Origin: Bacilli bacterium
GTDB lineage: Bacteria; Bacillota_I; Bacilli_A; RF39; UBA660
Assembly (NCBI GenBank): GCA_017617435.1
Contig: JAFZWF010000014.1
Location: forward strand, 573-64,572
Length of the DNA: 64,000 nucleotides
Direction of reading: 5' to 3'
In this document: positions 6,381-59,040 of the stretch, in pieces
Layout of the letters: every line of letters starts with the position of its first letter
Numbering within the stretch: the first letter of the stretch is position 1
The notes under the pieces: generated by a model
Database searches by the model: none
What the model was told of the DNA's origin: nothing
What the model saw: only the letters and a program-made list of their open reading frames with translations
Program-made: the position numbers and the translations under genes

Positions 6381-8285
6381 TTAGTTCAAATAAACCATAA
6401 CTATTCCATTTTCTTTTGTCATTGTATCTGCTTTAGGAGTTTGTTTTACTATATTTGTTCCACTACCAACATATTTTACTTGAAAATTATTAAGTAACTT
6501 TTTTGCTTCTTTTATTTTTAGACCTGTTACATCTGGAACCATATAGTATTTTTCATCAAGCCATAAATATTCTTTTGGAATTACATCTTTGCTTTCTTTT
6601 ATATTTAATATTTTAGCAGCACTTTTAAAGACATTCTTTGCAATTGGAGCTGATACTGTTCCTCCATACTGTACAGTATTTTTAGGGTGATCAATTGCAA
6701 CATAAACAATAATTTCAGGATCATCTGCTGGCATAAATCCAATAAATGATAATATATAGTTTCCTTCCATATATATTCCGTTACTTACCTTTTGAGCAGT
6801 TCCAGTCTTTCCACCAATTCGATAATTTTCTAGATATGCGTTATGACCTGTTCCAAGGGCAACAACTGTTTCAAGAGCATACCTGACAAGATTACTTGTT
6901 TCTTCACTGATAACTTTATTTTCTAATTTTTTTGTGTTTTCCAAAACCATCTCATGTGAGTAAGAATCCTCTATACCTTTTACAATAAATGGTGTATATA
7001 AATAACCTCCATTTATAACTGCACTAACTGCTTTAACTTGCTGAATTGGTGTAACTGATATACCTTGACCGAATGCTGTTGTTGCAAGTTCAAGTTCACC
7101 CATTTTACTTTTTGTAAATAGTATACCTTTTCCTTCACCGCTTAGATCAACACCAGTTTTTTTCCCGAATCCAAATTTATCTATATACTCCATAAGTTTT
7201 TCTTTACCAAGTTTTTGACCTATAGCAACAAAACCTGGATTACACGAATTTTGTAAAACTTCTAGATAAGTTTGAAGTCCATGCCCTTCATGTTTCCAGC
7301 AGTGAAGTGTTGAACCAGACACTTTTACGCTCCCTGAATCGTAAAATGTATCATCAAAGATATTTATAAGATTTTCCTCAATTGCTGATGCATATGAGAT
7401 AATCTTAAATGTTGATCCAGGTTCATATGTCATCCAAATTGGTAAATTACGATTTATTGTTTCTATATCATAATCTTTATAGTTATTGCTATCAAAATTA
7501 GGTCTTGATGCCATTGCTAAAATCTCACCTGATTTAGGATTCATAGCTAAAATCATTGCGTGTTCGGGGCTATATTTTGAAACAGCAACATCAAGTTCGT
7601 TTTCGATTGCAAGTTGTAAATCTAAATCAATTGTTAAAACAACGTTCATTCCGTTATATGGTTCATGATATGATTCACTTATATTTAATCTTTTACCTTT
7701 ACCATCAGATAAATACTTTATTGCTCCATCAATGCCCATTAAATATTTATCATAATACGATTCAATACCCGATAATCCTTGGTTATCAATTCCAACGTAA
7801 CCTAAAACATGTGATAATACTTCTTTATAAGGATAATATCTTTTACCTTCTTTAAGTAAATATACGCCATCAAGATTCAGTTCATTTATTTTATCTGCTA
7901 TATCATATGATAAACTTCTTCCCTCCGGATGGATTCTTTCTATAGATGTATTTTTAGTTATATGTTTATAGATATCACTATATGAAACACCTAAGATATC
8001 TGATAACTTCTTAGCAGTATATTCTTTATCTTTAATTTGTCTTGGAACAACTATAAGTGATGTTGTTGTAATATTACCTGCAAGTAGTTTTCCGTTTCTA
8101 TCTAAAATTAATCCTCTATCAGCCATTATCGGAAGATCTCTATTCCATAAGTCATCAGCTAGTTTATTTATTTTTTTATATTTAAAAAACTGGATATAAA
8201 AGATTTTAATAATTACTGCTACAAAAACACATATAATTAAAGTAATAAATATTTTAGATCTTTGATATATTTTTTCGTAGTTCAT
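6381..8285 (-). CDS. class B penicillin-binding protein (FtsI/PBP2B/SpoVD type) with C-terminal PASTA domain
   Basis: 634 aa. N-terminal TM anchor, transpeptidase motifs STFK, SCN, KTGT and a C-terminal PASTA-like segment. First gene of the dcw block. murE is not located between this gene and mraY. Confidence 0.85.
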   Translation of the reverse strand: MNYEKIYQRSKIFITLIICVFVAVIIKIFYIQFFKYKKINKLADDLWNRDLPIMADRGLILDRNGKLLAGNITTTSLIVVPRQIKDKEYTAKKLSDILGVSYSDIYKHITKNTSIERIHPEGRSLSYDIADKINELNLDGVYLLKEGKRYYPYKEVLSHVLGYVGIDNQGLSGIESYYDKYLMGIDGAIKYLSDGKGKRLNISESYHEPYNGMNVVLTIDLDLQLAIENELDVAVSKYSPEHAMILAMNPKSGEILAMASRPNFDSNNYKDYDIETINRNLPIWMTYEPGSTFKIISYASAIEENLINIFDDTFYDSGSVKVSGSTLHCWKHEGHGLQTYLEVLQNSCNPGFVAIGQKLGKEKLMEYIDKFGFGKKTGVDLSGEGKGILFTKSKMGELELATTAFGQGISVTPIQQVKAVSAVINGGYLYTPFIVKGIEDSYSHEMVLENTKKLENKVISEETSNLVRYALETVVALGTGHNAYLENYRIGGKTGTAQKVSNGIYMEGNYILSFIGFMPADDPEIIVYVAIDHPKNTVQYGGTVSAPIAKNVFKSAAKILNIKESKDVIPKEYLWLDEKYYMVPDVTGLKIKEAKKLLNNFQVKYVGSGTNIVKQTPKADTMTKENGIVMVYLN

Positions 8286-19170: not shown

Positions 19171-20481
19171 ATGGTTGATAAAATCAAAAAAATATATAAA
19201 AATAATCCAGATTTAATCATTAAGAATATCAGTGATGATGTAACAATTGTATATTTTGAATCTATTTGTTCATCTGATCGAATAAATGAATTTGTAACAA
19301 AACCATTAATTTATGAAAATAAAGTTAGTGCACCTCACATTATTTATATTAAAGAAAATGAAATCGAAAAATATTTAAATAATGCTTTTGCAATTATCAT
19401 AAGTAGTAACAATAATTTATGTGCTGCAGAAGTTAGAGGTGATTTATCAAGAAGTATTGATTCTCCTGAAACCGAACCATCAATTAATGGACCAAAAGAT
19501 GCATTAACTGAAAATATACAACTTAATTTAGGTTTAATTAAAAGACGAATTAAGACTAAAGATTTAAAAATAATAAATAAAAGCATAGGTAAATATACAG
19601 ATACTTTAGTTCAAGTACTTTATATTAAAAAAGAAGAAAACAAAAAAATAGTTAAGAGAGTTCTTGACAATCTTGATGAAATTAATATTTCAGGAATAAT
19701 TGATTCAAGCAATATATCTAATGCTCTTCAAGAAAAAGTAAAATCTGATTTTCCTACAATTATGCCTAGCGAAAGGCCAGATGAAATATCAAATGCTTTA
19801 ATAGAAGGTAAAATTGTTATTCTAGTTGATAATAGTCCTTTTGCTCTTATCACGCCAAGTTATTTTACTGATTTTATAAATCCTGTAGTTGATAGGTATA
19901 GCAAAGCTATACCTTCAAATTTTATAAAAGCTATAAGATATTTGTGTCTTATTATTACTTTAATAGAACCTGCATTTTATATTGCAACCATAAACTATAA
20001 TCAAGAGACAATACCAACAAGTTTATTAATTAATTTTATGATTCAAAGAGAAGGAGTTCCCTTCCCATCTGTTGCAGAAGCAATAATTATGTTAATTATT
20101 TACGAAATGCTTAGAGAAAGTGATATTAGATTTCCATCAAAATATGGAACTGCTATATCAATTTTAGGTGCACTTATACTTGGTGATGCAGCTGTTAAAG
20201 CAGGTATTGTAAGTCCAATTATGATTATAACTATTGCTATATGCTTTATATCATCATTAGTATTTACTAACCAGGATTTTTCAAACTCACTTAGAATTTA
20301 TCGTTTTTTATTTTTACTTGGTGCTGCTATTTTAGGTTTATACGGAATACTTTTAGTTTTTTTATATTTTCTTATTAAACTTTGTAGCACTTATACACTA
20401 GATAGATCATACACGATACCTATAGCGCCATATAAAGAAAAATACTTTTATAAATATATTTGGAGAAAAAGGGAAAAATGA
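19171..20481 (+). CDS. spore germination receptor A subunit (GerAA/GerKA family)
   Basis: 436 aa. Soluble N-terminal domain plus C-terminal TM bundle typical of GerA-family A subunits. First gene of an A-C-B operon. Confidence 0.7.
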   Translation: MVDKIKKIYKNNPDLIIKNISDDVTIVYFESICSSDRINEFVTKPLIYENKVSAPHIIYIKENEIEKYLNNAFAIIISSNNNLCAAEVRGDLSRSIDSPETEPSINGPKDALTENIQLNLGLIKRRIKTKDLKIINKSIGKYTDTLVQVLYIKKEENKKIVKRVLDNLDEINISGIIDSSNISNALQEKVKSDFPTIMPSERPDEISNALIEGKIVILVDNSPFALITPSYFTDFINPVVDRYSKAIPSNFIKAIRYLCLIITLIEPAFYIATINYNQETIPTSLLINFMIQREGVPFPSVAEAIIMLIIYEMLRESDIRFPSKYGTAISILGALILGDAAVKAGIVSPIMIITIAICFISSLVFTNQDFSNSLRIYRFLFLLGAAILGLYGILLVFLYFLIKLCSTYTLDRSYTIPIAPYKEKYFYKYIWRKREK

Positions 20482-21572
20482 AGATTAAAAAACTTATAAT
20501 TATTTTTGTTATATTAATTACTACTGGTTGTTTTAATTATGTTGAAATAAATAATTTAGTGATTGTTAGTGGTATTGGAATCGATTATAAAGATAATAAA
20601 TATGTTGTTACTTTTGAAAACTTATACCAAAATAAAGAATCATCAGATAGTAACTTTGCAACAGGCATTACAAAGACAGCAACTGGTGATACAATAGCAA
20701 ACGCTTTTGATAACATAACATTAAGTTTGGAAAAAAATCCTTATTATGCACATTTAAAAGTTGTAATTATTAGTAGTGAAATAGCAAATAATCATTTAGA
20801 TGAACTCTTTGATTTCTTTTTAAGAAATAATGATATACGAAATATCTTTTCTTTAGTTATATCAAAAGATATAACTCCTCAAGAAATATTTAATTCATCA
20901 AGCAAATACTATCCTGTTGTTAGCGAGCGTATTAAGAACCTTCTTGAAAATAATATTTACTCAAACTATATTTCTAAAAACAAATACTTTAAGAATATTG
21001 CAAGCAATTATTTAAGTGGTGAAAAAAATATTACGTTATCATCTATTTATAAAAAGGATGATGAATTAATTTTAGGTAATTTATTTGTCTTTGATAAGAA
21101 AAAAGTAGTTGGATCACTAAATCAAGAACAAGCATTAATTCTTTCAATTATCGATAATAATAAGCCATCATCTATAATTAAAGTACCATGTAAAATAGAT
21201 AGTGATAAGAAACTTGTTATCAGAATATATGAAAGTAAAACAAAATTTTCAATAAAGAAAAATGAATATAAAATCACAAATAATTTAAGTGCAGAGATCA
21301 TCGAAAATTCATGTAATATTAATTTGGAAAATAAAGAAAGTCAAAAACATATAACCGATAATTTTGAAAAAGAGATATCTAACCAAACAATAGATCTTAT
21401 AAACTATTTAAAAATAATAAATAGTGATATTTTAGGAATAAATAACAAATACTTTGTAAAATATCGTAGTAAAAATAGCAACTATTTTAAAGATAAAAAC
21501 TTTAAAGTTGATACAATTTTAAACATAAATAAAAAAGGATTAATTTTTGAGGTGAAAAATGATAACGAATAA
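20478..21572 (+). CDS. spore germination receptor C subunit (lipoprotein, GerAC/GerKC family)
   Basis: Lipoprotein signal ending TTGC (MKIKKLIIIFVILITTGC). Start ATG overlaps the upstream stop (ATGA). Ger(x)C-like length of about 365 aa. Confidence 0.7.
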   Translation: MKIKKLIIIFVILITTGCFNYVEINNLVIVSGIGIDYKDNKYVVTFENLYQNKESSDSNFATGITKTATGDTIANAFDNITLSLEKNPYYAHLKVVIISSEIANNHLDELFDFFLRNNDIRNIFSLVISKDITPQEIFNSSSKYYPVVSERIKNLLENNIYSNYISKNKYFKNIASNYLSGEKNITLSSIYKKDDELILGNLFVFDKKKVVGSLNQEQALILSIIDNNKPSSIIKVPCKIDSDKKLVIRIYESKTKFSIKKNEYKITNNLSAEIIENSCNINLENKESQKHITDNFEKEISNQTIDLINYLKIINSDILGINNKYFVKYRSKNSNYFKDKNFKVDTILNINKKGLIFEVKNDNE

Positions 21573-22536
21573 ACAAAAATTTTCTTTAATTTATTTTATT
21601 ACTAATAGTTTTTTTCTTGCATCAGGTTATTCTCTTATTTTTAAAGTTTCCGGTAAGGACACGTGGCTCTCGATGATTTTAGGAACACTAATTGGTGCTT
21701 TTTTTATATACCTAATGAATAAATACATATTTAATAAAAATAGTAACAACATATTAACAAAACTTGTAACATACTCTTTTCATATATTTATTATTTTTAT
21801 AAATATTCTTGTAGTAAGAATATTTGCAACTTCTTTTTTTCTTACTAAAACACCTGGGATAGTAATTACTTTACCATTTATATCTCTTGCCTTTATGTGT
21901 TCAAAAAAAGGAATTAATACAATAGTAAAAATGAGTGAATTACTGCTACCAATTAGTTTATTCTTAATAACAATTTCCATGATTGCTGTTTTAAAAGATG
22001 GATCTATTAATTCATTTCTTCCACTTTTAACAGTACCTAAACGTAAAATATTTATTTCAAGTCTATATTATGGTATTTTTACTGCTATTCCCCATTTAAT
22101 GTTATATAACATTAATATTGATGAAAAAATTCATATTAAATCGTATATTTATTCATCATTAATATCAATTTTTATCGGCATTATAATAATTTCAACACTT
22201 GGTCCTTATTTAATAAAAGTTTTTAGATTTCCTGAATATATGGTTCTTAAACAAATTAAACTATTTAACTTTATTGAAAAAATTGAAAACCTGATTGGTT
22301 TAGTATGGTTTTTTGATTTATTCATGTCATCAAGTGTTTGTTTTTATAATTTAAATAAAGTCATAAATAAAAACTTTATAATTGCAATAATTATTGCATC
22401 TATAGTATATTTTGTTGAGTTTGTTTCTAAAAACTATGAATATGCTAACTACATATATAAACATTTACCCATTTTATTATTTATTATAGGTTCTATATTT
22501 TTTATTATATTTTATAGAAATAAAAAAAGTAGCTAA
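21559..22536 (+). CDS. spore germination receptor B subunit (GerAB/GerKB, APC-like permease)
   Basis: 325 aa polytopic membrane protein. Overlaps the C-subunit gene. Third gene of the ger operon. Confidence 0.65.
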   Translation: MITNKQKFSLIYFITNSFFLASGYSLIFKVSGKDTWLSMILGTLIGAFFIYLMNKYIFNKNSNNILTKLVTYSFHIFIIFINILVVRIFATSFFLTKTPGIVITLPFISLAFMCSKKGINTIVKMSELLLPISLFLITISMIAVLKDGSINSFLPLLTVPKRKIFISSLYYGIFTAIPHLMLYNINIDEKIHIKSYIYSSLISIFIGIIIISTLGPYLIKVFRFPEYMVLKQIKLFNFIEKIENLIGLVWFFDLFMSSSVCFYNLNKVINKNFIIAIIIASIVYFVEFVSKNYEYANYIYKHLPILLFIIGSIFFIIFYRNKKSS

Positions 22537-27816: not shown

Positions 27817-30453
27817 TTATTCTACAAAGCGGTAATCAGCTTTTACTTCTTCTAATGTTTTAGTTGTAAATGATAGGTAGTATATTTTACCTGTATTATT
27901 ACTTTCAGTAGCATTTGTATAACAATCTGTATAGAATTTTAAGTCATTTCTTGTTTCACCACTAATATCAGCAGCATAAATATCAGATGCTACATTTTCA
28001 AAAGTAGGTTTATAGAATGTTCTTCCACTTAAATTTACATTATATGGATCACTACTAAAACCAATACGTCCACCAGTATAGAAGTTTTCTTTTCTTATTA
28101 TAACTGTATTATATAGTGATAAATCAATTGTATCAGTATATAAAATATTGTATACACCAACACCACCATTAAATATAATAGCATCGTTTGCAAATGTTGC
28201 ACGTTTTGCTGGATTATTATCATCAAGCCTATGTTCATTATGAAGTGATTCATATGAAATACCATTTGAATAATATACGTGGTTGGAATAATCTATTGTG
28301 TTTCCTCTTCCAACATATGTAACTTTTGCATAACCATTACCAATTTTCATCTTTTTAGGTGTTGGTTCGCGAGTTGCTTCTGATGCTGCAACAGCAACAG
28401 TTTTTGTAAGTGGAGATGTACTTGTAGTACAGTTAGTTGATGTGTTAATGCAAATCATTAAACCATCAGAAACATAACCGCTACCAATATAACTAGTTCC
28501 ACCACCAGCTCCAGCACAAGCTTTGCCAGAAGAACCTCCACCATATAGGCCTCCGCCACCACCGGCTCCACCATATGTTGGACTTAAGAATCTTGCACCA
28601 TTTCCAAATGTTCCAGAGTTATCAGGATTACTTGTTGTGTATCCACCAGATGATTGAGTTGCTCCAGTTCCAGATTCGTTAGTTGTACAAGCGTTTAAAC
28701 CTGTATTTCCAGTTATACCTCCAGCAGATCCACCTTTTGCATTTCCTTGAGTGGCACTACCTCCACCACCTCCAGCAGCAACAAGTAAATTATTTAAATC
28801 ATTTTCAAAATCTTCAAGTGGTCCAGATGTTAAAGCAATATGTGTTGCTCCTCCACCACCATAACCATTATATATATTAAAATCTTTACCAGCACCTCCG
28901 CCGTTATATCCACCGGATGATCCTGTAGGTTGACCACCAACATTAATATATAAAGTTTGACCAGTACTTAAATATACACTAGTAGTTGCGTAACCTCCAT
29001 AACCACCATCAGTATCGTTTGCGCCTCCACCTTGAGCACCCCAAGTTTCTAACTTATATGTTCCACTTGCAGGAACTGTGAAAGCTTGTTCTGATCCAGT
29101 ATAGTCATAATTATATTCTTTACTAATTAAAGTAATTTTTGCAGCTCCGCTTCCAAGTTTAGCATAACCACTAATTGGAAGAGCTGATTTATTATTTGTT
29201 GAAATAGTTTTAGTACTTGCTGCTGTACTTTCAGTACAGTGATAACAGTATACAACACCATTTGATAAATTAGCGTTACCAATGTAGCTAGATCCTCCAC
29301 CAGCTCCAGCGCTTGTTTTAGATGATCCACCACCGCCATATAGGCCTCCGCCACCTCCGGCTCCACCTAAAGGATTGTTACTTGAATCAGTTGTTGCATA
29401 GTAATTTGCACCTTTACCAAATGTACCAACATTTCCACTAAGTGATGCTGTTGTTCCACCTGCAGTTTGCGTTGCACCAATTCCATAATATGCTGTTGAT
29501 GATTCAGTGCTTATTCCACTTACACCAGTGATTCCACCACCAGATCCACCTTTAGATCCGTTAGTGTTACCACCTCCACCACCACCAGCAGCAGCGATAA
29601 GTAAATTTGTTTGATTTGTACTAAAGCTTGATAAAACACCAGATGATAAAGCTATACTTGTAGCTCCACCACCACCATAACCAATGACAGTGTTATTTGA
29701 TGTTGCTCCACCATTTCCACCACCATTATATCCACCGGTTAATCCATCTCCTTGGCCACCGATATTAATCATTAATCTTTGACCTTCGGTTAAACTTATT
29801 TCGCCAGCAGCGTAAGCTCCATATCCACCATCACCATCATATTTAGATGCTCCTTGAGCTCCCCATACTTCTAGTAGATATACTCCTGTTTTTGGTACTT
29901 CATATATTTGTTGTTCACCAGTTGATGACATGTAAGAATTTCCTATATTTCGAACCCAATAGATTTCAATATCATCAAGTGATGTTGAATCCATACCTTT
30001 TTTCTCTGTTTTAAATGTAATTCTGTAATAGTCATATCCATAATATGAACCATGTTTATAAATAAACATTGGATCGTACCATGCATTTGAATCACTCATA
30101 ACATATTTTTCTTTTAATAAGACAGTATTTCCATTTTTATGTAAAATACTAAAATATGTTTTCTCAACATTAATAGTTAGAGAGTTACCTGAACATAAAT
30201 TAAATACAATTACTGCTTTTGTTGAGCTAGAACCAGAAGTTGAGAAAGAACATATTCCTTCTTCCGAAACAATAGTTCCGATACTTCCCATTATTTGATT
30301 TCTTTTAACTTGGTTTGATCTAATATAACCAATAGATTTTTCATCATTTCTAACAGTATTTATTAATCTAAATAGGAAGACAACAACAACAGAAATAAGA
30401 GCAACGCAAATTAAAAGTTCAAGTAAAGTAAAACCTTTGTTTTTCTTTTTCAC
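27817..30453 (-). CDS. type-IV-pilin-like (prepilin N-terminal methylation motif) giant protein with two tandem glycine-rich repeat domains of about 250 aa
   Basis: GTG start with strong RBS (AGGGGGA). N-terminus MKKKNKG|FTLLELLICVALISVVVV is a class III signal sequence (G-1, F+1, E+5). Two internally homologous Gly-rich modules (YEVPKTGVYLLEVWGAQGA... and FTVPASGTYKLETWGAQGG...) each contain GGGGAT.IAL, LLxAAGGGGG, GGAGGGGGLYGGG and AGAGGGxSYIG blocks. Confidence 0.8.
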   Translation of the reverse strand: MKKKNKGFTLLELLICVALISVVVVFLFRLINTVRNDEKSIGYIRSNQVKRNQIMGSIGTIVSEEGICSFSTSGSSSTKAVIVFNLCSGNSLTINVEKTYFSILHKNGNTVLLKEKYVMSDSNAWYDPMFIYKHGSYYGYDYYRITFKTEKKGMDSTSLDDIEIYWVRNIGNSYMSSTGEQQIYEVPKTGVYLLEVWGAQGASKYDGDGGYGAYAAGEISLTEGQRLMINIGGQGDGLTGGYNGGGNGGATSNNTVIGYGGGGATSIALSSGVLSSFSTNQTNLLIAAAGGGGGGNTNGSKGGSGGGITGVSGISTESSTAYYGIGATQTAGGTTASLSGNVGTFGKGANYYATTDSSNNPLGGAGGGGGLYGGGGSSKTSAGAGGGSSYIGNANLSNGVVYCYHCTESTAASTKTISTNNKSALPISGYAKLGSGAAKITLISKEYNYDYTGSEQAFTVPASGTYKLETWGAQGGGANDTDGGYGGYATTSVYLSTGQTLYINVGGQPTGSSGGYNGGGAGKDFNIYNGYGGGGATHIALTSGPLEDFENDLNNLLVAAGGGGGSATQGNAKGGSAGGITGNTGLNACTTNESGTGATQSSGGYTTSNPDNSGTFGNGARFLSPTYGGAGGGGGLYGGGSSGKACAGAGGGTSYIGSGYVSDGLMICINTSTNCTTSTSPLTKTVAVAASEATREPTPKKMKIGNGYAKVTYVGRGNTIDYSNHVYYSNGISYESLHNEHRLDDNNPAKRATFANDAIIFNGGVGVYNILYTDTIDLSLYNTVIIRKENFYTGGRIGFSSDPYNVNLSGRTFYKPTFENVASDIYAADISGETRNDLKFYTDCYTNATESNNTGKIYYLSFTTKTLEEVKADYRFVE

Positions 30454-47702: not shown

Positions 47703-48764
47703 TTAAAAATCATTACGATTTCTTAAAAATGATGGAATATCAATATCATCTTCAGGAGATCTTCTTTGAGGAAGGTCTGTATCTGGTGCTTTATATTCAG
47801 AATCTTCTTCTCGATTATTATCATCAAAACCAGTTGCAATTACTGTAACGATAACTTCATCAGTTAAGTTTTCATTTTTAATAGCACCGAAGATAATATT
47901 TAAATCATTATTTGCTGCTGCTCTAACAGTTTCAACAGCATCTTCGATTTCAAATAATGTAAGGTTTTTACCACCTGTAACATTAACGATAGCATTCTTA
48001 GCTCCATCAATTGTAGCTTCAAGTAAAGCATTTGAAACAGCTTGTTTAGCAGATTCAATAGCTCTATTTTCACCAGCATTACATCCGATACCAATAATAG
48101 CAGTACCTGAGTTTTCCATAACAGTTTTAACATCTGCAAAGTCTAGGTTGATAATTCCTGTTACAGCAATTAAATCAGATATTGATTGAACACCACGGTG
48201 AAGTACTTTATCAACTTCTTTGAATGCATCATCAAATCCTGTAGTTTTATCAATAATATCTCTTAATCTATCATTTGGAACAACGATTAGTGAATCAACA
48301 TGTTTTCTAAGTTCATCAAGACCCATTAAAGCATTTTCCATTCTTCTTTTTCCTTCAAATCTGAATGGTTTAGTAACAATTGCAACAGTAAGTGATCCAA
48401 GTTCTTGAGCAATTTCAGCAATTATTGGGGCAGCACCAGTACCAGTTCCTCCACCAAGACCACATGCAATAAAGATCATATCTGCGCCTTTTAATGACTC
48501 TTCTAGTAAAGCTTTACTTTCTAGTGCAGCAGCACGTCCTACTTCAGGATCAGCACCAGCACCAAGACCAGTTGTAATATTCTCTCCGATTTGAATTTTG
48601 TGTTCAGCGCGAGATGCGTTTAATGCTTGTAAATCTGTATTTACAACAATAAATTCTACTCCTTTAACACCTTCATCAATCATTCGGTTAACAGCGTTAC
48701 ATCCTCCGCCACCAACACCAACAACTTTAATTTTTGCAATTTGATCCATTTTTAATCCGTTCAT
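47703..48764 (-). CDS. ftsZ: cell division GTPase FtsZ
   Basis: GGGTGTG tubulin signature, T7 loop. 353 aa. Confidence 0.95.
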
Positions 48765-48775
48765 ATATATTCTCC

Positions 48776-50020
48776 TTACTTGTCAAAAAATATTCCAAAT
48801 ACTTTACCAAGTATTGAATTTTCAGATATTCCCTTTTTATTTTCTAAACCACTAAATTCTTCTTGCTCATCAAGAGTAAAGATGGAATAATCTTTATTTC
48901 GAAGTTTTAATTTTCGATTGTAAAATTTAATTAAGCCTACGGAAGAACTATAAATGTTATTTCTTGCACCAATTTCGTTTACGTTTGCTACTTTAGCAAC
49001 TGAACCAAAGGATTCATCAACTATAATTTCAAAATCAGCGGCTTCCGTTAAGCCTCCTGTAATAATTATATAACTTATTTCCTTTTTTGTTAAGAGATTT
49101 ATTTGTTTTTTCACCAAATTAAAAATTTCTTTAATACGTTCCATGACAATTTCACTGGCTTCGTATTGATTTATTCTTATTGTTTCTTCTTCTTCATTTG
49201 CAAGTTCTATAACTTCATTTGGTTGAGCCATTCTTGTATGACATAATGCTAAGTTTTCTTTAATATATTTAGCATCAGATAGTGAAATATGATAGATATA
49301 TGAAATGTCTTTATCAATGTTACTTGATCCCATATTAATAACATCTGCTGAATGAATAACGCCTTTATTAAAAATGCTTACTTCAGTTGTGTCGGCGCCA
49401 ATATTAACTATTGCACCAGTTTCTTCATCATCATATTGATCATGAAGTTCTTCATAATCACCAAATGAGCAAAATGCTAAATCAATAATTTCAATTTGAT
49501 TTTTTTCTAAAACTTTTATTATAGGTTCAATACCCTTTTTAGGCGCAGTAACTAAAATACATTTGCTAGTTAGTTTTTCAGCGCCTATTCCTAAAGGTTC
49601 TTTTGTTAAAATGTCACCATTTATTTTAAAAATAATAGGAATTAAATTAATAAGTTCCATATTATCAGGTACTTTATTATATACTGCAGATTGCATTGAT
49701 CTAACGATATCGTTAGGTCCAACTACATATTCTTCATTATTTATAGTTGTTGAACCTTCAACTAGTTCATATTTTGCATTGTAAATAGGAACGTTTACAA
49801 TAACTTTTTTTACCTTAATTCCAAGTAATTCTTCAGCTTTTTTAAATAAATCAACAATTACTTCATTAAAACTTTCTTGGTTAACTATAAAGCCATTTTT
49901 AATTCCTTGGCTTTCGGAATTAATTGCAAGAAGAACATTAAATTTATTCTTAGTCATTTCACCAACAACCAATTTTATAAGACTTGAACCAATATCTAAA
50001 CTAGCAATTATCTTACGCAT
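48776..50020 (-). CDS. ftsA: cell division protein FtsA
   Basis: Actin-fold ATPase. [22 protein letters not shown]-terminus. 414 aa. Perfect sigma-A type promoter upstream. Confidence 0.9.
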
Positions 50021-50108: not shown

Positions 50109-50732
50109 TTATTTTCTATGTGGATTACTCTCATTAAACATTTGACAATGAGTACCTTTTTGTAATTCATTTTCAAATAAATATTTAAATAAATTCGAAT
50201 CTAATTCTCCATATCTTTCTTTTAAAACTAAAGTTATATAATTAGCAACTTTAGGTGTTATGTTATTATAATTTATTGAGGTAAACTCAGGCTCATTTAT
50301 ATATTCATTTACTTGATCAGATGTAGTGCACTTTATCATTCTCATGTAACTTCTAGATGCATTAGTATTAGATATCAATTTTGGTTTATTACCACTAGAT
50401 ACAGCTTTTGGTTTCATATGACATTTTAAACAATATGTACCATACTTAGAAATAAACCAGATATGCTTACAATTATGGTATTTACACCATTTTGTTTTCA
50501 TATCATACTGTTTAATAAGTTGTTCAATACTGCTTAGATTTTCCTTGAACTGTTTAATACGTTCTGATGATCCACTTTTTAAAACAGTATAAAGTTTTTC
50601 TTTTTGTTCATTATAATGAATCAGATACTTATCTCTTAATTTTTCATATTTTTCTTTGTTTTCTAAGGTTAAAATATCTCTAATCTGTTCAATTTTCATA
50701 ATAGCACCTTCGTTTTTCAACAATATTATCAC
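50109..50732 (-). CDS. hypothetical protein with zinc-ribbon-like Cys/His cluster (207 aa)
   Basis: CKYHNCKH...CLKCH cluster. Own terminator at 50071..50105. Confidence 0.45.
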   Translation of the reverse strand: MIILLKNEGAIMKIEQIRDILTLENKEKYEKLRDKYLIHYNEQKEKLYTVLKSGSSERIKQFKENLSSIEQLIKQYDMKTKWCKYHNCKHIWFISKYGTYCLKCHMKPKAVSSGNKPKLISNTNASRSYMRMIKCTTSDQVNEYINEPEFTSINYNNITPKVANYITLVLKERYGELDSNLFKYLFENELQKGTHCQMFNESNPHRK

Positions 50733-50774
50733 TTTAAAATTATATCTTCAATAAAAAAATCTCTTTAAAAGAGA

Positions 50775-51338
50775 TTATTTTATAGCAGCAATTAAGTCAG
50801 CTTTTTTCATTGTAGAATATCCACTAACATTTTGTGCTTTAGCAACTTCTTTAAGTTCTGCTAAAGTCATTTTAGAGTAATCTTTTTTAGATTCTTCTTT
50901 TTTAGCAGGAGCTTCTTTTTTAACTTCTATTTTTTCAGCTTTAGGAGCTTCTTTTTTAGCTACTTCTTTTTTAGCAATTTTTCCATCATTTGCATCTTTA
51001 GCAATTTTTACTAAAGAAGCAAATGCTTTTGCATCATCAATAGCAAGTTCTGAAAGCATTTTTCTATTTACTTCAACACCAGCTTTGTTTAAACCTGAAA
51101 TGAATTTAGAATAACTAATTTCATTTAATCTACAAGCAGCATTGATTCTTGTAATCCAAAGTTTTCTAAAGTTTCTTTTATTTGCTCTTCTATCTCTATA
51201 AGCATATACTCCACTATGGAATACTTGTTCTTGAGCAGTTTTATAAAGTCTGTGTTTAGAACCAAAATATCCTTTAGCAGCTTTAAGTACTTTTCTTCTT
51301 CTAGTTTTAGATACTGTTCCGCCTTTAACTCTTGTCAT
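50775..51338 (-). CDS. rplT: 50S ribosomal protein L20 with a C-terminal extension of about 70 aa (Lys/Ala-rich linker plus Rho_N-like helix-hairpin)
   Basis: Residues 1-118 match L20 (MTRVKGG...[10 protein letters not shown]...NRKMLSELA). The extension is [31 protein letters not shown] followed by [31 protein letters not shown]. Confidence 0.8.
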
Positions 51339-51353
51339 ATTTATTCACCTCTA

Positions 51354-51551
51354 CTAGATAACAGATTTTAATCTGCTAGCTTCTCCTTTTCCTAAGATTC
51401 CTTTATTTCTTCTTTGTCTAACTGCTTTAGAAGAGTCTTTTGCAGTTTTATGGTTACCATTACCTTTTTTATAAGTAATAGTTCCGTTTTTCTTTTTAGT
51501 TAAAACTTTAGCACTTGCTTTATGAGTTTTTTGTTTTGGACCTTTTGCCAT
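51354..51551 (-). CDS. rpmI: 50S ribosomal protein L35
   Basis: 65 aa basic protein between infC and rplT. Confidence 0.7.
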   Translation of the reverse strand: MAKGPKQKTHKASAKVLTKKKNGTITYKKGNGNHKTAKDSSKAVRQRRNKGILGKGEASRLKSVI

Positions 51552-51587: not shown

Positions 51588-52130
51588 TTATTTATCTTTT
51601 TTAGGGGCTAATAGCATATACATTTGTTTACCTTCAAGTTTAGGTTGTGTTTCAATTGTTGATTCTTCACTTAATGCATCAGCAAAACGAAGAAGAACTT
51701 CTTGACCTAATTCAGGGTGAGTAATACTTCTACCTTTAAATCTTAAAAAACCTTTTATTTTATGTCCCTTAAGTAAGTATTCACGAGCATTTTTTACTCT
51801 TGTATCAAAGTCATGAATATCTATATTTACTGATAAACGGTATTCTTTTACTTCCTTATTAGCAGCTCTTTGATTTTTTTGAGCTTCTTTTAACTTTTTA
51901 TTTCTTTCATATTTATATTTGTTATAATCCATAATTTTAGCAACAGCAGGAGTAGAATTACCATTCATTAAAACTAGATCTAAACCAGCATAGTTAGCTA
52001 GTGTTAATGCATCTGTAATATTTTTTATTCCCATCTGCTCTCCATTTGGACCTATAACCATCATTTCAGCAACCCTTATATTTTCATTAATAGGTAACTC
52101 ATTTTTGTTATTATTTGCTATTGTAATCAA
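51588..52130 (-). CDS. infC: translation initiation factor IF-3, non-ATG start
   Basis: IF-3 N- and C-domain motifs. The ORF-track start is TTG at 52130, directly abutting the GGAGG RBS. The real start is more likely the AUA/AUU a few codons downstream. Confidence 0.85.
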   Translation of the reverse strand: MITIANNNKNELPINENIRVAEMMVIGPNGEQMGIKNITDALTLANYAGLDLVLMNGNSTPAVAKIMDYNKYKYERNKKLKEAQKNQRAANKEVKEYRLSVNIDIHDFDTRVKNAREYLLKGHKIKGFLRFKGRSITHPELGQEVLLRFADALSEESTIETQPKLEGKQMYMLLAPKKDK

Positions 52131-52323
52131 CCTCCAAATTTAAATTATTAATACAAAAAAGTGGATACATAATATGTATCCACTTTAAAAACCTTAAATT
52201 ATAAATATATTATTATTTATTTTTTTATGGCCTTTTACCTATTACTACTTCGTAATCAGGTGGATGTGGATACATCGCTTTCCTTTTTCATATAACGATA
52301 TTAATTATATACTATTTTATGTA
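52131..52323 (-). promoter_or_regulatory. infC-rpmI-rplT leader: sigma-A-like promoter (TTGACA-16-TATAAT), then mutually exclusive antiterminator/terminator. Candidate L20-mediated attenuator.
   Basis: TTGACA at 52323..52318, TATAAT at 52301..52296. Terminator hairpin GTGGATACATATTATGTATCCAC + TTTTTT at 52184..52155. An upstream copy of ATGTATCCAC (52282..52273) can pair with the terminator 5' arm. Confidence 0.5.
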
Positions 52324-52338
52324 AATGTCAAGAATATA

Positions 52339-52686
52339 TTAGTGAATATTGTTAGATTTCTTAACATATGTTCTAACTTTTTGTTTTTCTGATTCTTTTT
52401 CGCTAGTATTATTTTCTTGTTCGTTGCGATTTATCACAGGTTCAATAGTATTTCCTGTTCTGCTAAAATATTTATTTCTTTCAAGCAAACACCAATCCTT
52501 TTTATATTCTGGTGTTATTTCTTCAGTTGTTGCAGTGCATGTGTCCTTTATTGGGCAAATGCCACACTCAAAATTTTTTTCTGAGTTCAATTCTACATCT
52601 ACTTTTCTATCTCTATTTATTGCAAATACATCTTCTAAAAGTTTAATTCTGAATTGTTTAAACTGCTCATCGGTCATTTTACTCAT
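52339..52686 (-). CDS. hypothetical small protein with 4 Cys (115 aa)
   Basis: ECGICP...CTATTEE...WC. No family recognised. Confidence 0.4.
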   Translation of the reverse strand: MSKMTDEQFKQFRIKLLEDVFAINRDRKVDVELNSEKNFECGICPIKDTCTATTEEITPEYKKDWCLLERNKYFSRTGNTIEPVINRNEQENNTSEKESEKQKVRTYVKKSNNIH

Positions 52687-53936: not shown

Positions 53937-55700
53937 CTATTTATGTTCTTTTATTTCGTTTTTTAGTAAATCGATGAATTCTTCATAAGTTACAGTTGTT
54001 GTTTCTTGAGAACCACGTCTTCTATAAGAAATTAACTTCTCATCAACTTCTTTTTGACCAAGAACAAGCACTATAGGTACCTTTTGCATTACAGCTTCTC
54101 TCATTCTATAACCAACTTTTTCTTCTCTATCATCAAGTTCAACTCTTATATCTTCATCAATTAATTTATTTAATATCTCGTTAGCATAATCTAAATGATA
54201 TTCATTATTAACTGGAAGTATTTTAACTTGAACTGGTGATAAGAATAGTGGAAGGTTTCCTTTAGTTTCCTCTAAATAGAATGCAATTGTTCTATCAAGA
54301 GAACCAAGAATAGCTCTATGTAGTACTACTGGAGTTTTCTTAGATCCATCTTTATCAATGTATTTTAAATCAAATTTCATAGGTAAACAGAAATCTATTT
54401 GACAAGTTGATAATGTTATTTCATTTCCAACAGCAGGTTGAACTTGAACATCACATTTAGGTCCATAGAAAGCTGCTTCACCTTTTTTCTCAACATATGG
54501 AATATTTAAATCATCCATTATTTTTCTTAAAGCATCTTCTGCAGTATTCCACATTTCATCATCTTGATGATATTTAACTTTATCTTCAGGATCTCTTAAA
54601 GAAAGTTCAAAGCGATAATTTTTAATTCCTAATTCTTTATAAACTTCTAAAATTAAATCTATAACATCTTTGAATTCAGCTTCAATTTGATCAGGAGTAC
54701 AGAAAATATGTGAGTCATTTTGACAGAATGTTCTAACTCTTTCAATACCTTTTAAAGCACCTGATGCTTCATATCGACAATCTCTTGCAATTTCAGCAAT
54801 TCTTAAAGGTAAATCTCTATAAGAATGAATGTCATTAGCATACATTACCATGTGATGAGGACAGTTCATAGGTCTTAAAACATATTCTTCATCTTCAACT
54901 TGCATAATTGGGAACATTGATTCTTTATAATGCTCTAGATGTCCAGAAGTCTTATATAGATTTACATTACCAAGTGGTGGAGTTTGAACATGTTTATATC
55001 CTCTTTTAAGTTCTTTATTTCTAATATAATTTTCAAATTCATTCCATAAAATAAAACCGTTAGGTAAATACATTGGAAGTCCACGACCAACTAAATCAGA
55101 CATCATATAAATACCTAAATCTTTACCAATTTTTCTATGATCTCTTTCTTTGGCTTCTTCAAGTTCTTGTAGATGTTTATTTAAATCTTCTTCATTATCA
55201 AAACAAATACCATAGATTCTTTGAAGCATTTTATTGCTTGCATCACCTTTCCAGTAAGCTCCGCTAAACTTTAAAAGTTTAAAGTTTTTAAGTTCTTTAA
55301 CAGTATCAACATGTGGTCCTCGGCATAAATCAGTGAAGTCTCCTTGAGTATAACAAGAAATTACGGTATTATCTTCATCCATATTATTAATTAAGTCTAA
55401 TTTGTATGGATCGTTTTTAAACATTTCTAGAGCTTCATCTTTAGATATTTCTTGTCTTACTATTCTTTTGCCATCTTTAGCTAGTTTTTTCATCTCTTTA
55501 GATATTGCTTCAATATCTTGATCAGTTAATACTTTATCTCCTAGATCAATATCATAGTAGAAACCTTCTTCAATAACTGGTCCTACCCAGAATTTTGCAT
55601 CAGGAAATAAATGTTTAACTGCTTGTGCCATAAGGTGAGCACATGAGTGATTAAGCTTAGTTAATCTTTCATCTTCTTTAATGTTTATCATATCAATCAT
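53937..55700 (-). CDS. thrS: threonyl-tRNA synthetase, short form lacking the N-terminal TGS domain
   Basis: Editing (N2) domain HxxxH...CxxxH, class II core motifs, C-terminal anticodon-binding domain. 587 aa versus about 640 for Bacillus ThrS. It cannot extend upstream because the T-box terminator sits there. Confidence 0.9.
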   Translation of the reverse strand: MIDMINIKEDERLTKLNHSCAHLMAQAVKHLFPDAKFWVGPVIEEGFYYDIDLGDKVLTDQDIEAISKEMKKLAKDGKRIVRQEISKDEALEMFKNDPYKLDLINNMDEDNTVISCYTQGDFTDLCRGPHVDTVKELKNFKLLKFSGAYWKGDASNKMLQRIYGICFDNEEDLNKHLQELEEAKERDHRKIGKDLGIYMMSDLVGRGLPMYLPNGFILWNEFENYIRNKELKRGYKHVQTPPLGNVNLYKTSGHLEHYKESMFPIMQVEDEEYVLRPMNCPHHMVMYANDIHSYRDLPLRIAEIARDCRYEASGALKGIERVRTFCQNDSHIFCTPDQIEAEFKDVIDLILEVYKELGIKNYRFELSLRDPEDKVKYHQDDEMWNTAEDALRKIMDDLNIPYVEKKGEAAFYGPKCDVQVQPAVGNEITLSTCQIDFCLPMKFDLKYIDKDGSKKTPVVLHRAILGSLDRTIAFYLEETKGNLPLFLSPVQVKILPVNNEYHLDYANEILNKLIDEDIRVELDDREEKVGYRMREAVMQKVPIVLVLGQKEVDEKLISYRRRGSQETTTVTYEEFIDLLKNEIKEHK

Positions 55701-56874: not shown

Positions 56875-57762
56875 TTATTTTTCTCTTCTGTTTACACTAA
56901 TTAATTCTAAATCATTAGTTAACTGTTTAATTCTTTCAATTATTCTTCTAGCTTTAACCAAATCATCACTTTTATTTGAAAGTGCTAAATGACTTTCAAG
57001 TTCTTTAATAGTTAAGTTTGATGTAAAGAATGTTGCAAGTTGTTTATCCATTCTTGCTTGTAAAATAGTTCCAAGAACTTCATCTCTTCCCCATTCAGTT
57101 ACTTTTTCAGCACCAATATCATCAATAAGTAAAATATCAACACTTTTTAAATACTCTATCTTACTTCCAAAATTATCCCAGTCATCTTTTAAAGTTCTTA
57201 AAGCTTCTGGAAAATAAATCATGCAAACAGATGCTTTTTTCTTTTCATGAAGTTCATTTAAAAGTGCTGAAACTAAAAAACTTTTACCTGAACCAAAAGA
57301 ACCATGTAAATATAAACCTACATTATTTTTAGAAGGACTATAATTATTAAAAAATTCATCTAAATAACAAATAACTTCTTGTCTTTTTTTATCTGTTATG
57401 TCAATATCCTTCATTCTTACATCTTCTAAAGGATTGTGATTTTTTTTATCTATTTCATCATCAATGGCTTTAGTATATTTACAAGGTATATAACTAAATA
57501 TAAGTCTATTTCCTTCTTTTTTAGGATATGAAACATATCCTTCAAGTTTATTCTTGCACTGAAATATACCCTTACAATTTTTACAATTAGATAGTTCACA
57601 TAACGTATCTTCTAACTTTGATGTATACTTTGCAGCAACACTATCATCAATATCTAGTTTTTGACAAAGCTTAATGAACTTTTCATCTTTTTTTGCAGAT
57701 GATAATTCTTTTTTTAGTTCACTAACAATTTTTTTATTATAACTTAAATTCACATTTTCCAT
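56875..57762 (-). CDS. dnaI: primosomal protein DnaI (helicase loader, AAA+)
   Basis: N-terminal zinc-binding region (CKNCKG...C), Walker A GSFGSGKS, Walker B LLIDDIG. 295 aa. Confidence 0.8.
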   Translation of the reverse strand: MENVNLSYNKKIVSELKKELSSAKKDEKFIKLCQKLDIDDSVAAKYTSKLEDTLCELSNCKNCKGIFQCKNKLEGYVSYPKKEGNRLIFSYIPCKYTKAIDDEIDKKNHNPLEDVRMKDIDITDKKRQEVICYLDEFFNNYSPSKNNVGLYLHGSFGSGKSFLVSALLNELHEKKKASVCMIYFPEALRTLKDDWDNFGSKIEYLKSVDILLIDDIGAEKVTEWGRDEVLGTILQARMDKQLATFFTSNLTIKELESHLALSNKSDDLVKARRIIERIKQLTNDLELISVNRREK

Positions 57763-57768
57763 AAATTA

Positions 57769-59040
57769 TCACCTGTATTTTTCCATCATTTCTTGCATTT
57801 TCTTTTCTTCTTCTTCAGTAATTTCTTTTTTCTCTATTTTTTCATCAAACCATTCTGGTTGTTTTTTAGTAGAAATTATTTTCTTTTCAGATATTTTTTT
57901 AGATTTACGATGTTCTTCTTCTGCAAATGCCATTGCATCTGCTGCTGTTTCAATGTTTTGTCTTTTCCACTGACCTGCAATAGTTTCAACAAAACCAGTT
58001 GTTAATTTATTATTATTTTTCTTTAAAACATAATCGATTAATACGTTTACTACAGCAGGTTTTAAATCTAGATCAATAAGTAAACTTTCAAGAAGTTTTA
58101 AATCTCTTGCTGTTGGTTTTGAATTGTTATATTTACTTTTAAGAAAATCATAAGGTGTTGTATTTTCAAAGACAGCTATTAATTTACCACGCTTAGAATT
58201 ATCTCCTTGTGGTGATTTTAAATATTCTGGTTGAATGCGATATATAAGTGATGGTAATGCTCCATTTTGAGATTGATATCTACTTCTAGCATTCTTTCTT
58301 AAATCATTTATATTAATAATTCCTTTTTCTGAAATAGATTCACGTATAAGTTCACACATTTTTATATTATCAAAATTATATATATAAGATAACTGATTAA
58401 TAAGTTTTCTTATTTCTAAAGTAAATGTTCGTTGATTTACTAATCCCTTTGGTAAAGATGAAACTATAAAATCAAAATCAATTATATTTTCTGAATTTAT
58501 ACCTAAAAATTCTCTTTTAATAATATTTTCTGGAATTGGTGCATCAACTGATTGATAAACCTCATTAATTTTTTTTGTTATGTCATCATAACCTGTTAAA
58601 TCAATATCAATCTTTTGATATTTTTTTACTAAATTATCGTACTCACCTTTTCCAATATTGTTATATAAAACTACATTATATATTGCATTATTAAAAAAGT
58701 CTGATGGAAGAAGTGGCGAATATAATTCGTAGATATATTCATTTATATCTCCTTCTTTATAATATGTTTTAACTAATCCCATGGCTTCTAAAGCTTCCCT
58801 TGCTTTTTTTATGTCTTCTAAACTTAGTTTAAGAAGAGTCATTAAATGGTGATGAGAATGGTCTTTACTTTTTAAGGATATACTATTTAAGTCATTCCAA
58901 AAAGCTAGGTATAAACCTACTGCTGTTGCACCAATTATTGGTTCATAAAGATTAATAAGGGTTTCACGATCCTGATCTGATAATATCGTTTTATTAATAA
59001 TTAAGTATTTATCAGCTGGAAGTAATGTTACTAACTTCAT
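57769..59040 (-). CDS. dnaB: replication initiation and membrane attachment protein DnaB (Bacillus-type, DnaD-like domains)
   Basis: N-terminus LPADKYLIINKTILSDQDRETLINLYEPIIGATAVGLYLAFW parallels B. subtilis DnaB. 423 aa. Confidence 0.75.
   Translation of the reverse strand: MKLVTLLPADKYLIINKTILSDQDRETLINLYEPIIGATAVGLYLAFWNDLNSISLKSKDHSHHHLMTLLKLSLEDIKKAREALEAMGLVKTYYKEGDINEYIYELYSPLLPSDFFNNAIYNVVLYNNIGKGEYDNLVKKYQKIDIDLTGYDDITKKINEVYQSVDAPIPENIIKREFLGINSENIIDFDFIVSSLPKGLVNQRTFTLEIRKLINQLSYIYNFDNIKMCELIRESISEKGIININDLRKNARSRYQSQNGALPSLIYRIQPEYLKSPQGDNSKRGKLIAVFENTTPYDFLKSKYNNSKPTARDLKLLESLLIDLDLKPAVVNVLIDYVLKKNNNKLTTGFVETIAGQWKRQNIETAADAMAFAEEEHRKSKKISEKKIISTKKQPEWFDEKIEKKEITEEEEKKMQEMMEKYR

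Follow-up and report, generated by a model that had tools for sequence, protein, structure and literature searches.

Bacterial ribosomal proteins L20 (bL20) with an added C-terminal domain have been catalogued before, and the closest such entry is the NCBIfam model NF011109 (PRK14537), an 'L20/unknown domain fusion protein' whose plan comprises an L20 core, a long low-complexity linker, and a C-terminal module. Likewise catalogued as an L20 with an added C-terminal domain is NF051450 ('L20, sunset domain variant'). Among non-ribosomal proteins, the relevant precedents are the N-terminal hairpin of termination factor Rho, which belongs to Pfam family PF07498 (Rho_N), and the C-terminal Rho-N module of Arabidopsis RHON1, a stretch of 40 amino acids (aa) that binds single-stranded RNA (ssRNA), including fragments of 16S/23S ribosomal RNA (rRNA), and not double-stranded RNA, in a protein that supports rRNA processing and forms a complex with RNase E (PMC3458557). 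Here, we analyzed the rplT gene (50775..51338, minus strand) in a 64,000-nucleotide stretch of DNA from a Bacilli bacterium (assembly GCA_017617435.1, contig JAFZWF010000014.1; G+C content ~25%), referred to below as the window. The encoded protein is a canonical bL20 core followed by a disordered tether and a helix-extended-helix module of the Rho_N type that is conserved and under selection. This architecture is already present in the databases, as the identical NCBI protein (listed under 'MAG: 50S ribosomal protein L20 [Bacilli bacterium]', where MAG denotes a metagenome-assembled genome), as precomputed Pfam pairs, as PRK14537, and as an L21 analogue. In the literature, we found no paper describing an L20 with a Rho_N tail, the catalogued 'sunset' and 'unknown domain' fusions, or a helix-extended-helix on a ribosomal protein, beyond RHON1.

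The reading frame of rplT is open throughout, running for 187 residues from the ATG at 51338 to the TAA at 50775-50777 (open reading frame (ORF) listing, sequence inspection, and Pfam), and by gene order in the window it is the third and last gene of an infC-rpmI-rplT operon on the minus strand. Pfam assigns residues 3-109 to Ribosomal_L20 (PF00453; E 7.4e-45, 151.9 bits with a cutoff of 30.8) over the full profile (1-107 of 107), and the NCBIfam model TIGR01032 (rplT_bact) is likewise covered from end to end (1-114 of 114; 155.3 bits with a cutoff of 65.65). Moreover, the bL20 chain of S. aureus (4wce_N) aligns to residues 1-116 with an E-value of 1.9e-47. Solved bacterial bL20 chains are 112-129 aa long, and since their alignment is confined to residues 1-116 of the window protein, the extension amounts to ~70 residues, as an earlier note on this DNA had proposed; the linker and tail strings quoted in that note agree as well. 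On the basis of Pfam, PDB alignment, conservation, and AlphaFold2 (AF2) modelling, the bL20 core was delimited to residues 1-117 (50988..51338), for which the full-length model has a predicted local distance difference test (pLDDT) score of ~80-89. Next to it lies the linker (residues 118-152; 50883..50987), which is disordered and rich in K, E, V, A, and T, as judged from pLDDT, composition, and the ratio of nonsynonymous to synonymous substitution rates (dN/dS). The 35-aa C-terminal module (residues 153-187; 50778..50882) was delimited by Pfam, AF2, Foldseek, and dN/dS. All three segments are encoded on the minus strand.

That the tail belongs to the Rho_N family is indicated by a Pfam match to PF07498 at residues 155-187 of the whole protein (40.6 bits with a gathering score of 24.9; E 2.5e-10). 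In fact, the 35-aa tail by itself scores 45.1 bits (E 9.6e-12), which places the resemblance far beyond chance. Using a 68-sequence alignment of the tail, AF2 predicted a helix, an extended loop, and a second helix with a pLDDT of 87-91 (74-80 for the tail in the full-length model), and the best PDB matches of this prediction in Foldseek were the RNA-binding domain of Rho (1a8v/2a8v), with an rmsd (root-mean-square deviation) of 0.8-0.9 Å over 34 columns, a TM (template modelling) score of ~0.70, and ~24% identity. The predicted tail fold thus superposes on the Rho N-terminal hairpin, and the Rho_N-like reading given in the earlier note is upheld both by a profile score above the curated Pfam threshold and by the fold match. 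Further along the Rho sequence the likeness ends, as only residues ~151-186 match the Rho models (NCBIfam TIGR00767/PRK09376; positions 3-38, 15.6 bits with a cutoff of 315), and Pfam found none of the other Rho domains (OB-fold, RecA-type ATPase) in the window protein. Unlike Rho, then, the protein has its module at the C-terminus, lacks both the OB-fold RNA-binding subdomain and the RecA-type ATPase, and is not a terminator.

The SAP and HeH/LEM domains (as in Ku70, FAN1, and PIAS) share the same helix-extended-helix topology and a similar motif (L..L.V.ELK....RGL...G.K.ELI..L), though they are mostly eukaryotic binders of double-stranded DNA (dsDNA). With the SAP profile (PF02037; cutoff 23.9), the whole protein stays below at 17.6 bits and the isolated tail reaches 24.1 bits, the match covering only the first 18 of the 37 profile positions, whereas HeH/LEM (PF12949) gives 16.3 bits to 21.4 bits, the latter for the isolated tail, under its gathering score of 28.9. 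The SAP likeness suggested at first reading is real yet weaker than that to Rho_N, being marginal for the isolated tail and below the cutoff for the whole protein. Ranked after Rho in the Foldseek search were the SAP domains of FAN1 and Ku70, and the C-terminal SAP-like domain of CDNF with BiP was also present. A profile search of the PDB with the tail placed the Ku70 SAP region on top (E 9e-6), followed by the N-termini of three Rho proteins; here, each SAP copy in the Ku70 match contributes ~15 bits, compared with 26 bits for one Rho N-terminus.

Between the confidently modelled core and tail, residues 129-151 of the linker have an AF2 pLDDT of ~32-34, giving the model the look of a bead on a string. 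Among 79 sequences, the linker is 20-49 aa long (median, 29), with a composition of 31% K, 21% E, 12% V, 10% A, and 9% T and a mean net charge of ~+2.7. Owing to this K/E composition and low charge, we regard it as a polyampholyte spacer and not as the strongly basic, histone-H1-like tail for which the earlier note had taken it.

The three segments also differ in how they have been conserved. Mean pairwise identity is 0.79 in the core, 0.30 in the linker, and 0.65 in the tail, with column conservation in agreement, and the corresponding dN/dS values (medians over 128 pairs at ≥80% identity) are 0.08, 0.65, and 0.18. In the best 120 homologues (73-100% identity, 176-194 aa), PF00453 and PF07498 occur together in every one, and the matches listed by a scan of one genome per species include more than 541 species-level genomes, from uncultured gut Bacilli. 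We inspected the loci of the best 80 of these more than 541 species-representative matches, which come from independent assemblies, and found the fused ORF (163-202 aa) in 80/80; these are gut MAGs labelled Bacilli, Tenericutes, Mycoplasma sp. CAG:776, Firmicutes CAG:582, Clostridium sp. CAG:609, and Ca. Ventrenecus. Judging by the CAG and UMGS genome names and by PMC7301438, the lineage is probably of the RF39/RFN20 type; in the NCBI taxonomy, the genus Ca. Ventrenecus is placed as incertae sedis. The tail consensus reads D[YL]SK.T[LV]AELK..AKE.G[IV]KGYS[TS]MKK.EL[IL]..LK, with D153, T158, E161, L162, K163, A166, K167, G173, Y174, M177, K178, and K179 invariant in 58 close homologues. The extension is thus retained throughout the best 120 homologues and the 80 loci, the stop or frameshift after residue ~118 that might have been expected of a sequencing error occurs in none of the relatives examined, and the alternative raised in the earlier note, that of a lineage-specific ribosome feature, is borne out by the spread over more than 541 species-level genomes.

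These same data bear on whether the extension could be a frameshift, a missed stop, a separate small gene merged with rplT, or a neutral stretch without function. In favor of such an origin, the NCBI annotation of some related MAGs shows, after rpmI, a 'Rho termination factor N-terminal domain-containing protein' of 45-69 aa as a gene of its own, but these annotated mini-proteins turn out to be in-frame C-terminal pieces of intact L20 fusion ORFs of 178-189 aa. Moreover, the frame stays open in all 80 independently assembled loci, and the tail dN/dS of 0.18 rules out neutrality. On these sequence comparisons, we consider the extension not to be an artefact and that explanation to be effectively refuted. 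A stand-alone Rho_N gene was rejected as a candidate, as the Bacilli MAG mini-proteins found by the tail profile lie in frame inside fusion ORFs, and so was an internal start at Met156, a residue that varies (M, L, or K) among relatives. No second copy of the Rho_N module was found in the window. In three relatives (L081 2400-2939, L082 4641-5177, and L087 2641-3210), an intact L20-Rho_N ORF has had its tail annotated as a separate protein of 45-69 aa, and rplT is not listed; given the fusion, we take this split annotation to be a systematic gene-calling artefact.

With regard to the catalogued L20 variants, the 35-aa tail of the window protein matches positions 191-224 of the 232 in NF011109 (E 2.1e-6, 27.6 bits), which is better than its match to the Rho models, and the family consensus tail does so with an E-value of 4.3e-7. 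Because this linker-free tail falls on the C-terminal positions of the model, the 'unknown domain' of PRK14537 is the same Rho_N-type module. When the full-length sequences are compared, just the core and linker of the window protein align, and all scores lie under the 187-bit cutoff (166.1 for the window protein and 170.9-186.8 for six relatives); a model of 232 positions implies a longer linker. For NF051450, the scores of 151 bits (window protein) and 139-144 bits (relatives) stem from the core and linker and are well below its cutoff of 375 bits, while the isolated tail gave no match to this model, whose added domain differs. Since NF051450 too has acquired a domain, the C-terminus of L20 is a recurrent point of fusion.

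A more conspicuous parallel is found on another ribosomal protein. In marine Flavobacteriaceae, bL21 consists of a core, a K/A/P linker, and Rho_N (169-187 aa; PF00829 and PF07498), and is annotated simply as 50S ribosomal protein L21, as for example in Flavobacteria bacterium MS024-3C. This form of bL21 is very abundant, one such sequence occurring on 773 contigs, Tara samples included (L083 2361-3171; P0384-P0503). Here, the architecture is identical to that of the window protein, whose tail the bL21 tail (EDLSSKTVAELKDMAKAKGIEGISAMKKAELIAALS) closely resembles in sequence; in both, a low-complexity linker separates the C-terminal tail from the core of a small 50S protein. The differences lie in the host protein (PF00829 and not PF00453), the phylum (Bacteroidota), and the linker, which is A/K/P-rich and not K/E-rich. 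In the lineage of the window, bL21 itself is plain (~100 aa). As bL20 and bL21 are described as being connected to each other in bacterial ribosomes (PMC7804294), a near-identical tail on these neighbors suggests a functional site on the 50S subunit that is missing from the ribosomes of model organisms. As a separate observation, the 60-aa protein P0186 has the N-terminus of bL27 (MAHKKGVGSSKNGRES) running into the linker and Rho_N module, and may be either a rare fusion of bL27 or the product of a misassembly or deletion that brought rpmA and the L21 tail together.

Beyond the ribosome, the module is widespread. An exhaustive search with the tail profile returned 9,115 cluster representatives at E ≤ 1e-3, many of them with tandem copies, and a Pfam scan of 104 top representatives found Rho_N in all 104, together with SAP (53), HeH (25), Ribosomal_L20 (4), RlmM_FDX (2), Ribosomal_L21p (1), and Ribosomal_L7Ae (1), as well as kinases, HMG boxes, and phage domains. 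A first tail-profile search matched only proteins of ≤70 aa, and these architectures are therefore taken from the exhaustive representative search and its Pfam scan. A genuine stand-alone Rho_N mini-protein of 67 aa lies right after phage scaffold and major capsid genes in two loci (L085 1458-1661 and L086 3001-3204); its JGI label is 'large subunit ribosomal protein L21', apparently transferred from the L21-Rho_N fusions.

Turning to the expression of the gene, the order ahead of infC is, from 5′ to 3′, a promoter, an L20-leader-like match containing a terminator, a GGAGG, and the infC start. The operon promoter is of the sigma-70 type and was found by sequence scan at 52304..52331 (minus strand; TTGACA-16-TATAAT, 12/12 matches). 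The candidate L20 leader, an attenuator resembling Rfam RF00558, was located by cmscan at 52147..52286 (minus strand), with model positions 1-127 aligned and no non-canonical pairs. Its score of 38.4 bits (E 1.9e-5 to 2.2e-6) is below the gathering score of 58.7, for which reason we regard the identification of the leader as probable but not certain. Within it, a terminator scan detected a hairpin with a 13-pair stem and a T-run (52158-52186, minus strand). Similar sub-threshold matches are found upstream of infC in 2/8 relatives (43.8 bits in L011 and 37.3 bits in L014), and at the Rfam gathering score there was no L20 leader in the window or in 15 relatives, the matches appearing only at permissive thresholds. 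Given that the leader-like match sits upstream of infC and recurs in relatives, the Bacillus-type L20 feedback attenuator has probably been retained. As for the other end of the operon, RNA folding revealed a terminator-like hairpin that overlaps the rplT stop codon and is followed by a U-run (50750..50777, minus strand). Folding of 50745-50790(-) gives an 8-bp inner stem (AAUCUCUU/AAGAGAUU) and then UUUUUU, with a free energy of -11.2 kcal/mol (z = -3.08; 0/200 shuffles as stable); the consensus terminator scan missed this hairpin because its G-C pairs are too few. With hairpin and U-run placed over the rplT stop, the tail appears to close the transcription unit. Separately, relative L021 has an L21 leader (2066-2144; 41.8 bits, above the gathering score) before a plain rplU-ysxB-rpmA cluster directly upstream of infC.

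What the tail might do is best approached from its host protein and its domain type. L20 is an early 23S rRNA assembly protein, and its C-terminus we take to lie on the solvent face of the 50S subunit, near bL21. Because the Rho-N module of RHON1 binds ssRNA, we infer that the tail does so too; the likeness rests on a ~40-aa Rho-N helix-extended-helix at the extreme C-terminus of a non-Rho protein and is drawn from the domain type, since RHON1 is a eukaryotic chloroplast protein and partner of RNase E, and not ribosomal. With L20 binding early in 50S assembly, our best guess, to which we assign a probability of roughly one half, is that the tail serves as an arm that holds or chaperones rRNA, or one that keeps further RNAs or partners on the surface of the 50S subunit. 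In such a scheme, the core would anchor the protein at its usual 50S site beside bL21, and the spacer would give the module a reach of several nanometres across the solvent face. The module itself would bind ssRNA weakly and with low sequence specificity by way of the invariant K163, K167, K178, and K179. It could then hold or chaperone segments of 23S rRNA during early 50S assembly, or else retain further RNA, or partners in RNA processing, at the surface of the ribosome. The classical functions of L20 and its leader-based operon feedback are probably unchanged. It is thus inferred that the ligand is RNA, that the tail is located on the ribosome, and that it acts in assembly or in holding RNA.

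Several observations weigh against an RNA-holding arm on the ribosome. At only ~+2 (with a range of -2 to +5 in relatives), the net charge of the tail is modest for a segment that would bind nucleic acid, and the relatives of the tail in sequence include DNA-binding SAP domains such as those of Ku70. The Foldseek E-values exceed 1, the query being just 45 aa long. Moreover, no ribosomal chain was matched when the tail profile was run on the PDB, nor was any solved ribosome with this tail among the PDB chains matched, and the leader through which feedback would be kept scores below its Rfam threshold. Finally, with the module spread over so many unrelated proteins, its function cannot be read from the domain alone. 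A bolder version of the RNA-holding arm, which we hold to be doubtful, is that the solvent-face patch of bL20 and bL21 has repeatedly served to attach a tethered RNA-binding arm of the Rho_N type. Such an arm would have been gained independently on bL20 (by a large order of uncultured gut Bacilli, as well as by the organisms behind PRK14537) and on bL21 (by marine Flavobacteriaceae), and would have a specific and hitherto unrecognized ribosomal function. Candidate jobs for it, by analogy, would be the capture of nascent 23S rRNA during co-transcriptional assembly, or the recruitment of transcripts or of RNA-processing and degradation machinery, as with RHON1 and RNase E; it may also compensate for assembly factors lost from reduced genomes.

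Three other explanations of the tail have to be weighed against the RNA-holding arm. As SAP/SAF-box domains prefer AT-rich DNA, and the genome is ~25% GC, the tail might instead be a SAP-like dsDNA binder that ties ribosomes, or L20 in its free form, to the AT-rich nucleoid, whether for translation near transcription or as a moonlighting nucleoid-associated protein. The isolated tail does reach the SAP gathering score, the Ku70 SAP region is the best PDB sequence match of the tail profile, and the fold matches include the SAP domains of FAN1 and Ku70; even so, the Rho_N score is about twice that for SAP (45 versus 24 bits), the Ku70 copies individually score less than a single Rho N-terminus, the sole Rho-N module to have been tested experimentally binds ssRNA, and the linker is a polyampholyte and not a strongly basic, DNA-condensing tail, all of which makes DNA tethering unlikely. 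Quite unlikely, in our estimate, is a tail through which free L20 binds the leader RNA of infC-rpmI-rplT more strongly or in an altered way, with the operon feedback retuned as a result. An L20-leader-like element with a terminator does lie between the consensus promoter and infC and recurs in relatives, and its divergence (37-44 bits versus 58.7) could reflect co-evolution with a modified repressor, but divergence is expected anyway at ~25% GC, and a direct link between tail and leader is absent. Moreover, the same tail is carried by bL21 of Flavobacteriaceae, another ribosomal protein in another operon, which points to a role tied to a ribosomal site.

We attach a similarly low likelihood to the module being a protein docking tag by which a partner such as an RNase, helicase, or assembly factor is brought to the surface of the 50S subunit. 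Such a tag would fit with the RHON1-RNase E complex (PMC3458557), with the SAP-like domain of CDNF with BiP among the fold matches, and with the presence of the module in very diverse proteins, phage head modules included. However, no partner gene is conserved beside rplT, with neighbors varying between the related loci and the window, the Rho-N module of RHON1 was itself the RNA-binding part, and the invariant lysines of the tail suit nucleic-acid binding.

Whatever its ligand, the L20-Rho_N fusion is a genuine, lineage-wide, and selected ribosome decoration of a kind already known, that of ribosomal proteins with Rho_N-type C-terminal tails. Lineage-specific appendages on ribosomal proteins mark places where ribosomes were adapted, and this one has been kept under purifying selection across hundreds of species of an abundant, uncultured gut lineage with reduced genomes. 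Should the tail bind RNA, the ribosome would here carry an arm that holds RNA, which could help to explain rRNA assembly in reduced genomes. For annotation, the 'unknown domain' of PRK14537 can be named as Rho_N-type (helix-extended-helix), and two errors of current pipelines become apparent, in that they split off the tail as a spurious 'Rho N-terminal domain protein', thereby losing rplT, and misname phage Rho_N mini-proteins as L21.

The remainder of the operon and its surroundings are conventional. Directly upstream of rplT is rpmI (bL35; 51354..51551, minus strand; 65 aa by ORF call), preceded by infC (IF3; 51588..52130, minus strand; 180 aa by ORF call), which has a TTG start and an upstream GGAGG Shine-Dalgarno sequence. 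The infC-rpmI-rplT order is repeated in related loci, with Pfam IF3_N, IF3_C, and Ribosomal_L35p at matching positions. Downstream of rplT lie ftsA and ftsZ (47703-50020(-)), and upstream of the operon are thrS, with threonyl-tRNA synthetase domains, and DnaI/DnaB-like replication loader genes (53937-55700(-) and 56875-59040(-)); housekeeping neighbors such as these are consistent with a core chromosomal region and not a mobile element. Two Cys-containing ORFs without a Pfam match flank the operon, one of 207 aa between rplT and ftsA (50109-50732(-)), and the other of 115 aa upstream of the operon promoter (52339-52686(-)). Elsewhere in the window is a GerA-family spore germinant receptor (19171-22536(+); Pfam GerA, E 4e-124), and the two ORFs that come after it (370 and 325 aa) resemble the B and C subunits. 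These genes suggest sporulation in a low-GC, Tenericutes-like gut lineage and lend some support to the guess of a spore former in the earlier note. In relative L024, a 6S RNA (6585-6764; 65 bits) lies ~2 kb downstream of rplT. The window also encodes an 878-aa protein (27817-30453(-)) with a type IV pilin-like N-terminal methylation motif and an ALK/LTK glycine-rich domain, and a different N_methyl protein is found directly downstream of rplT in relative L081 (2980-4626).

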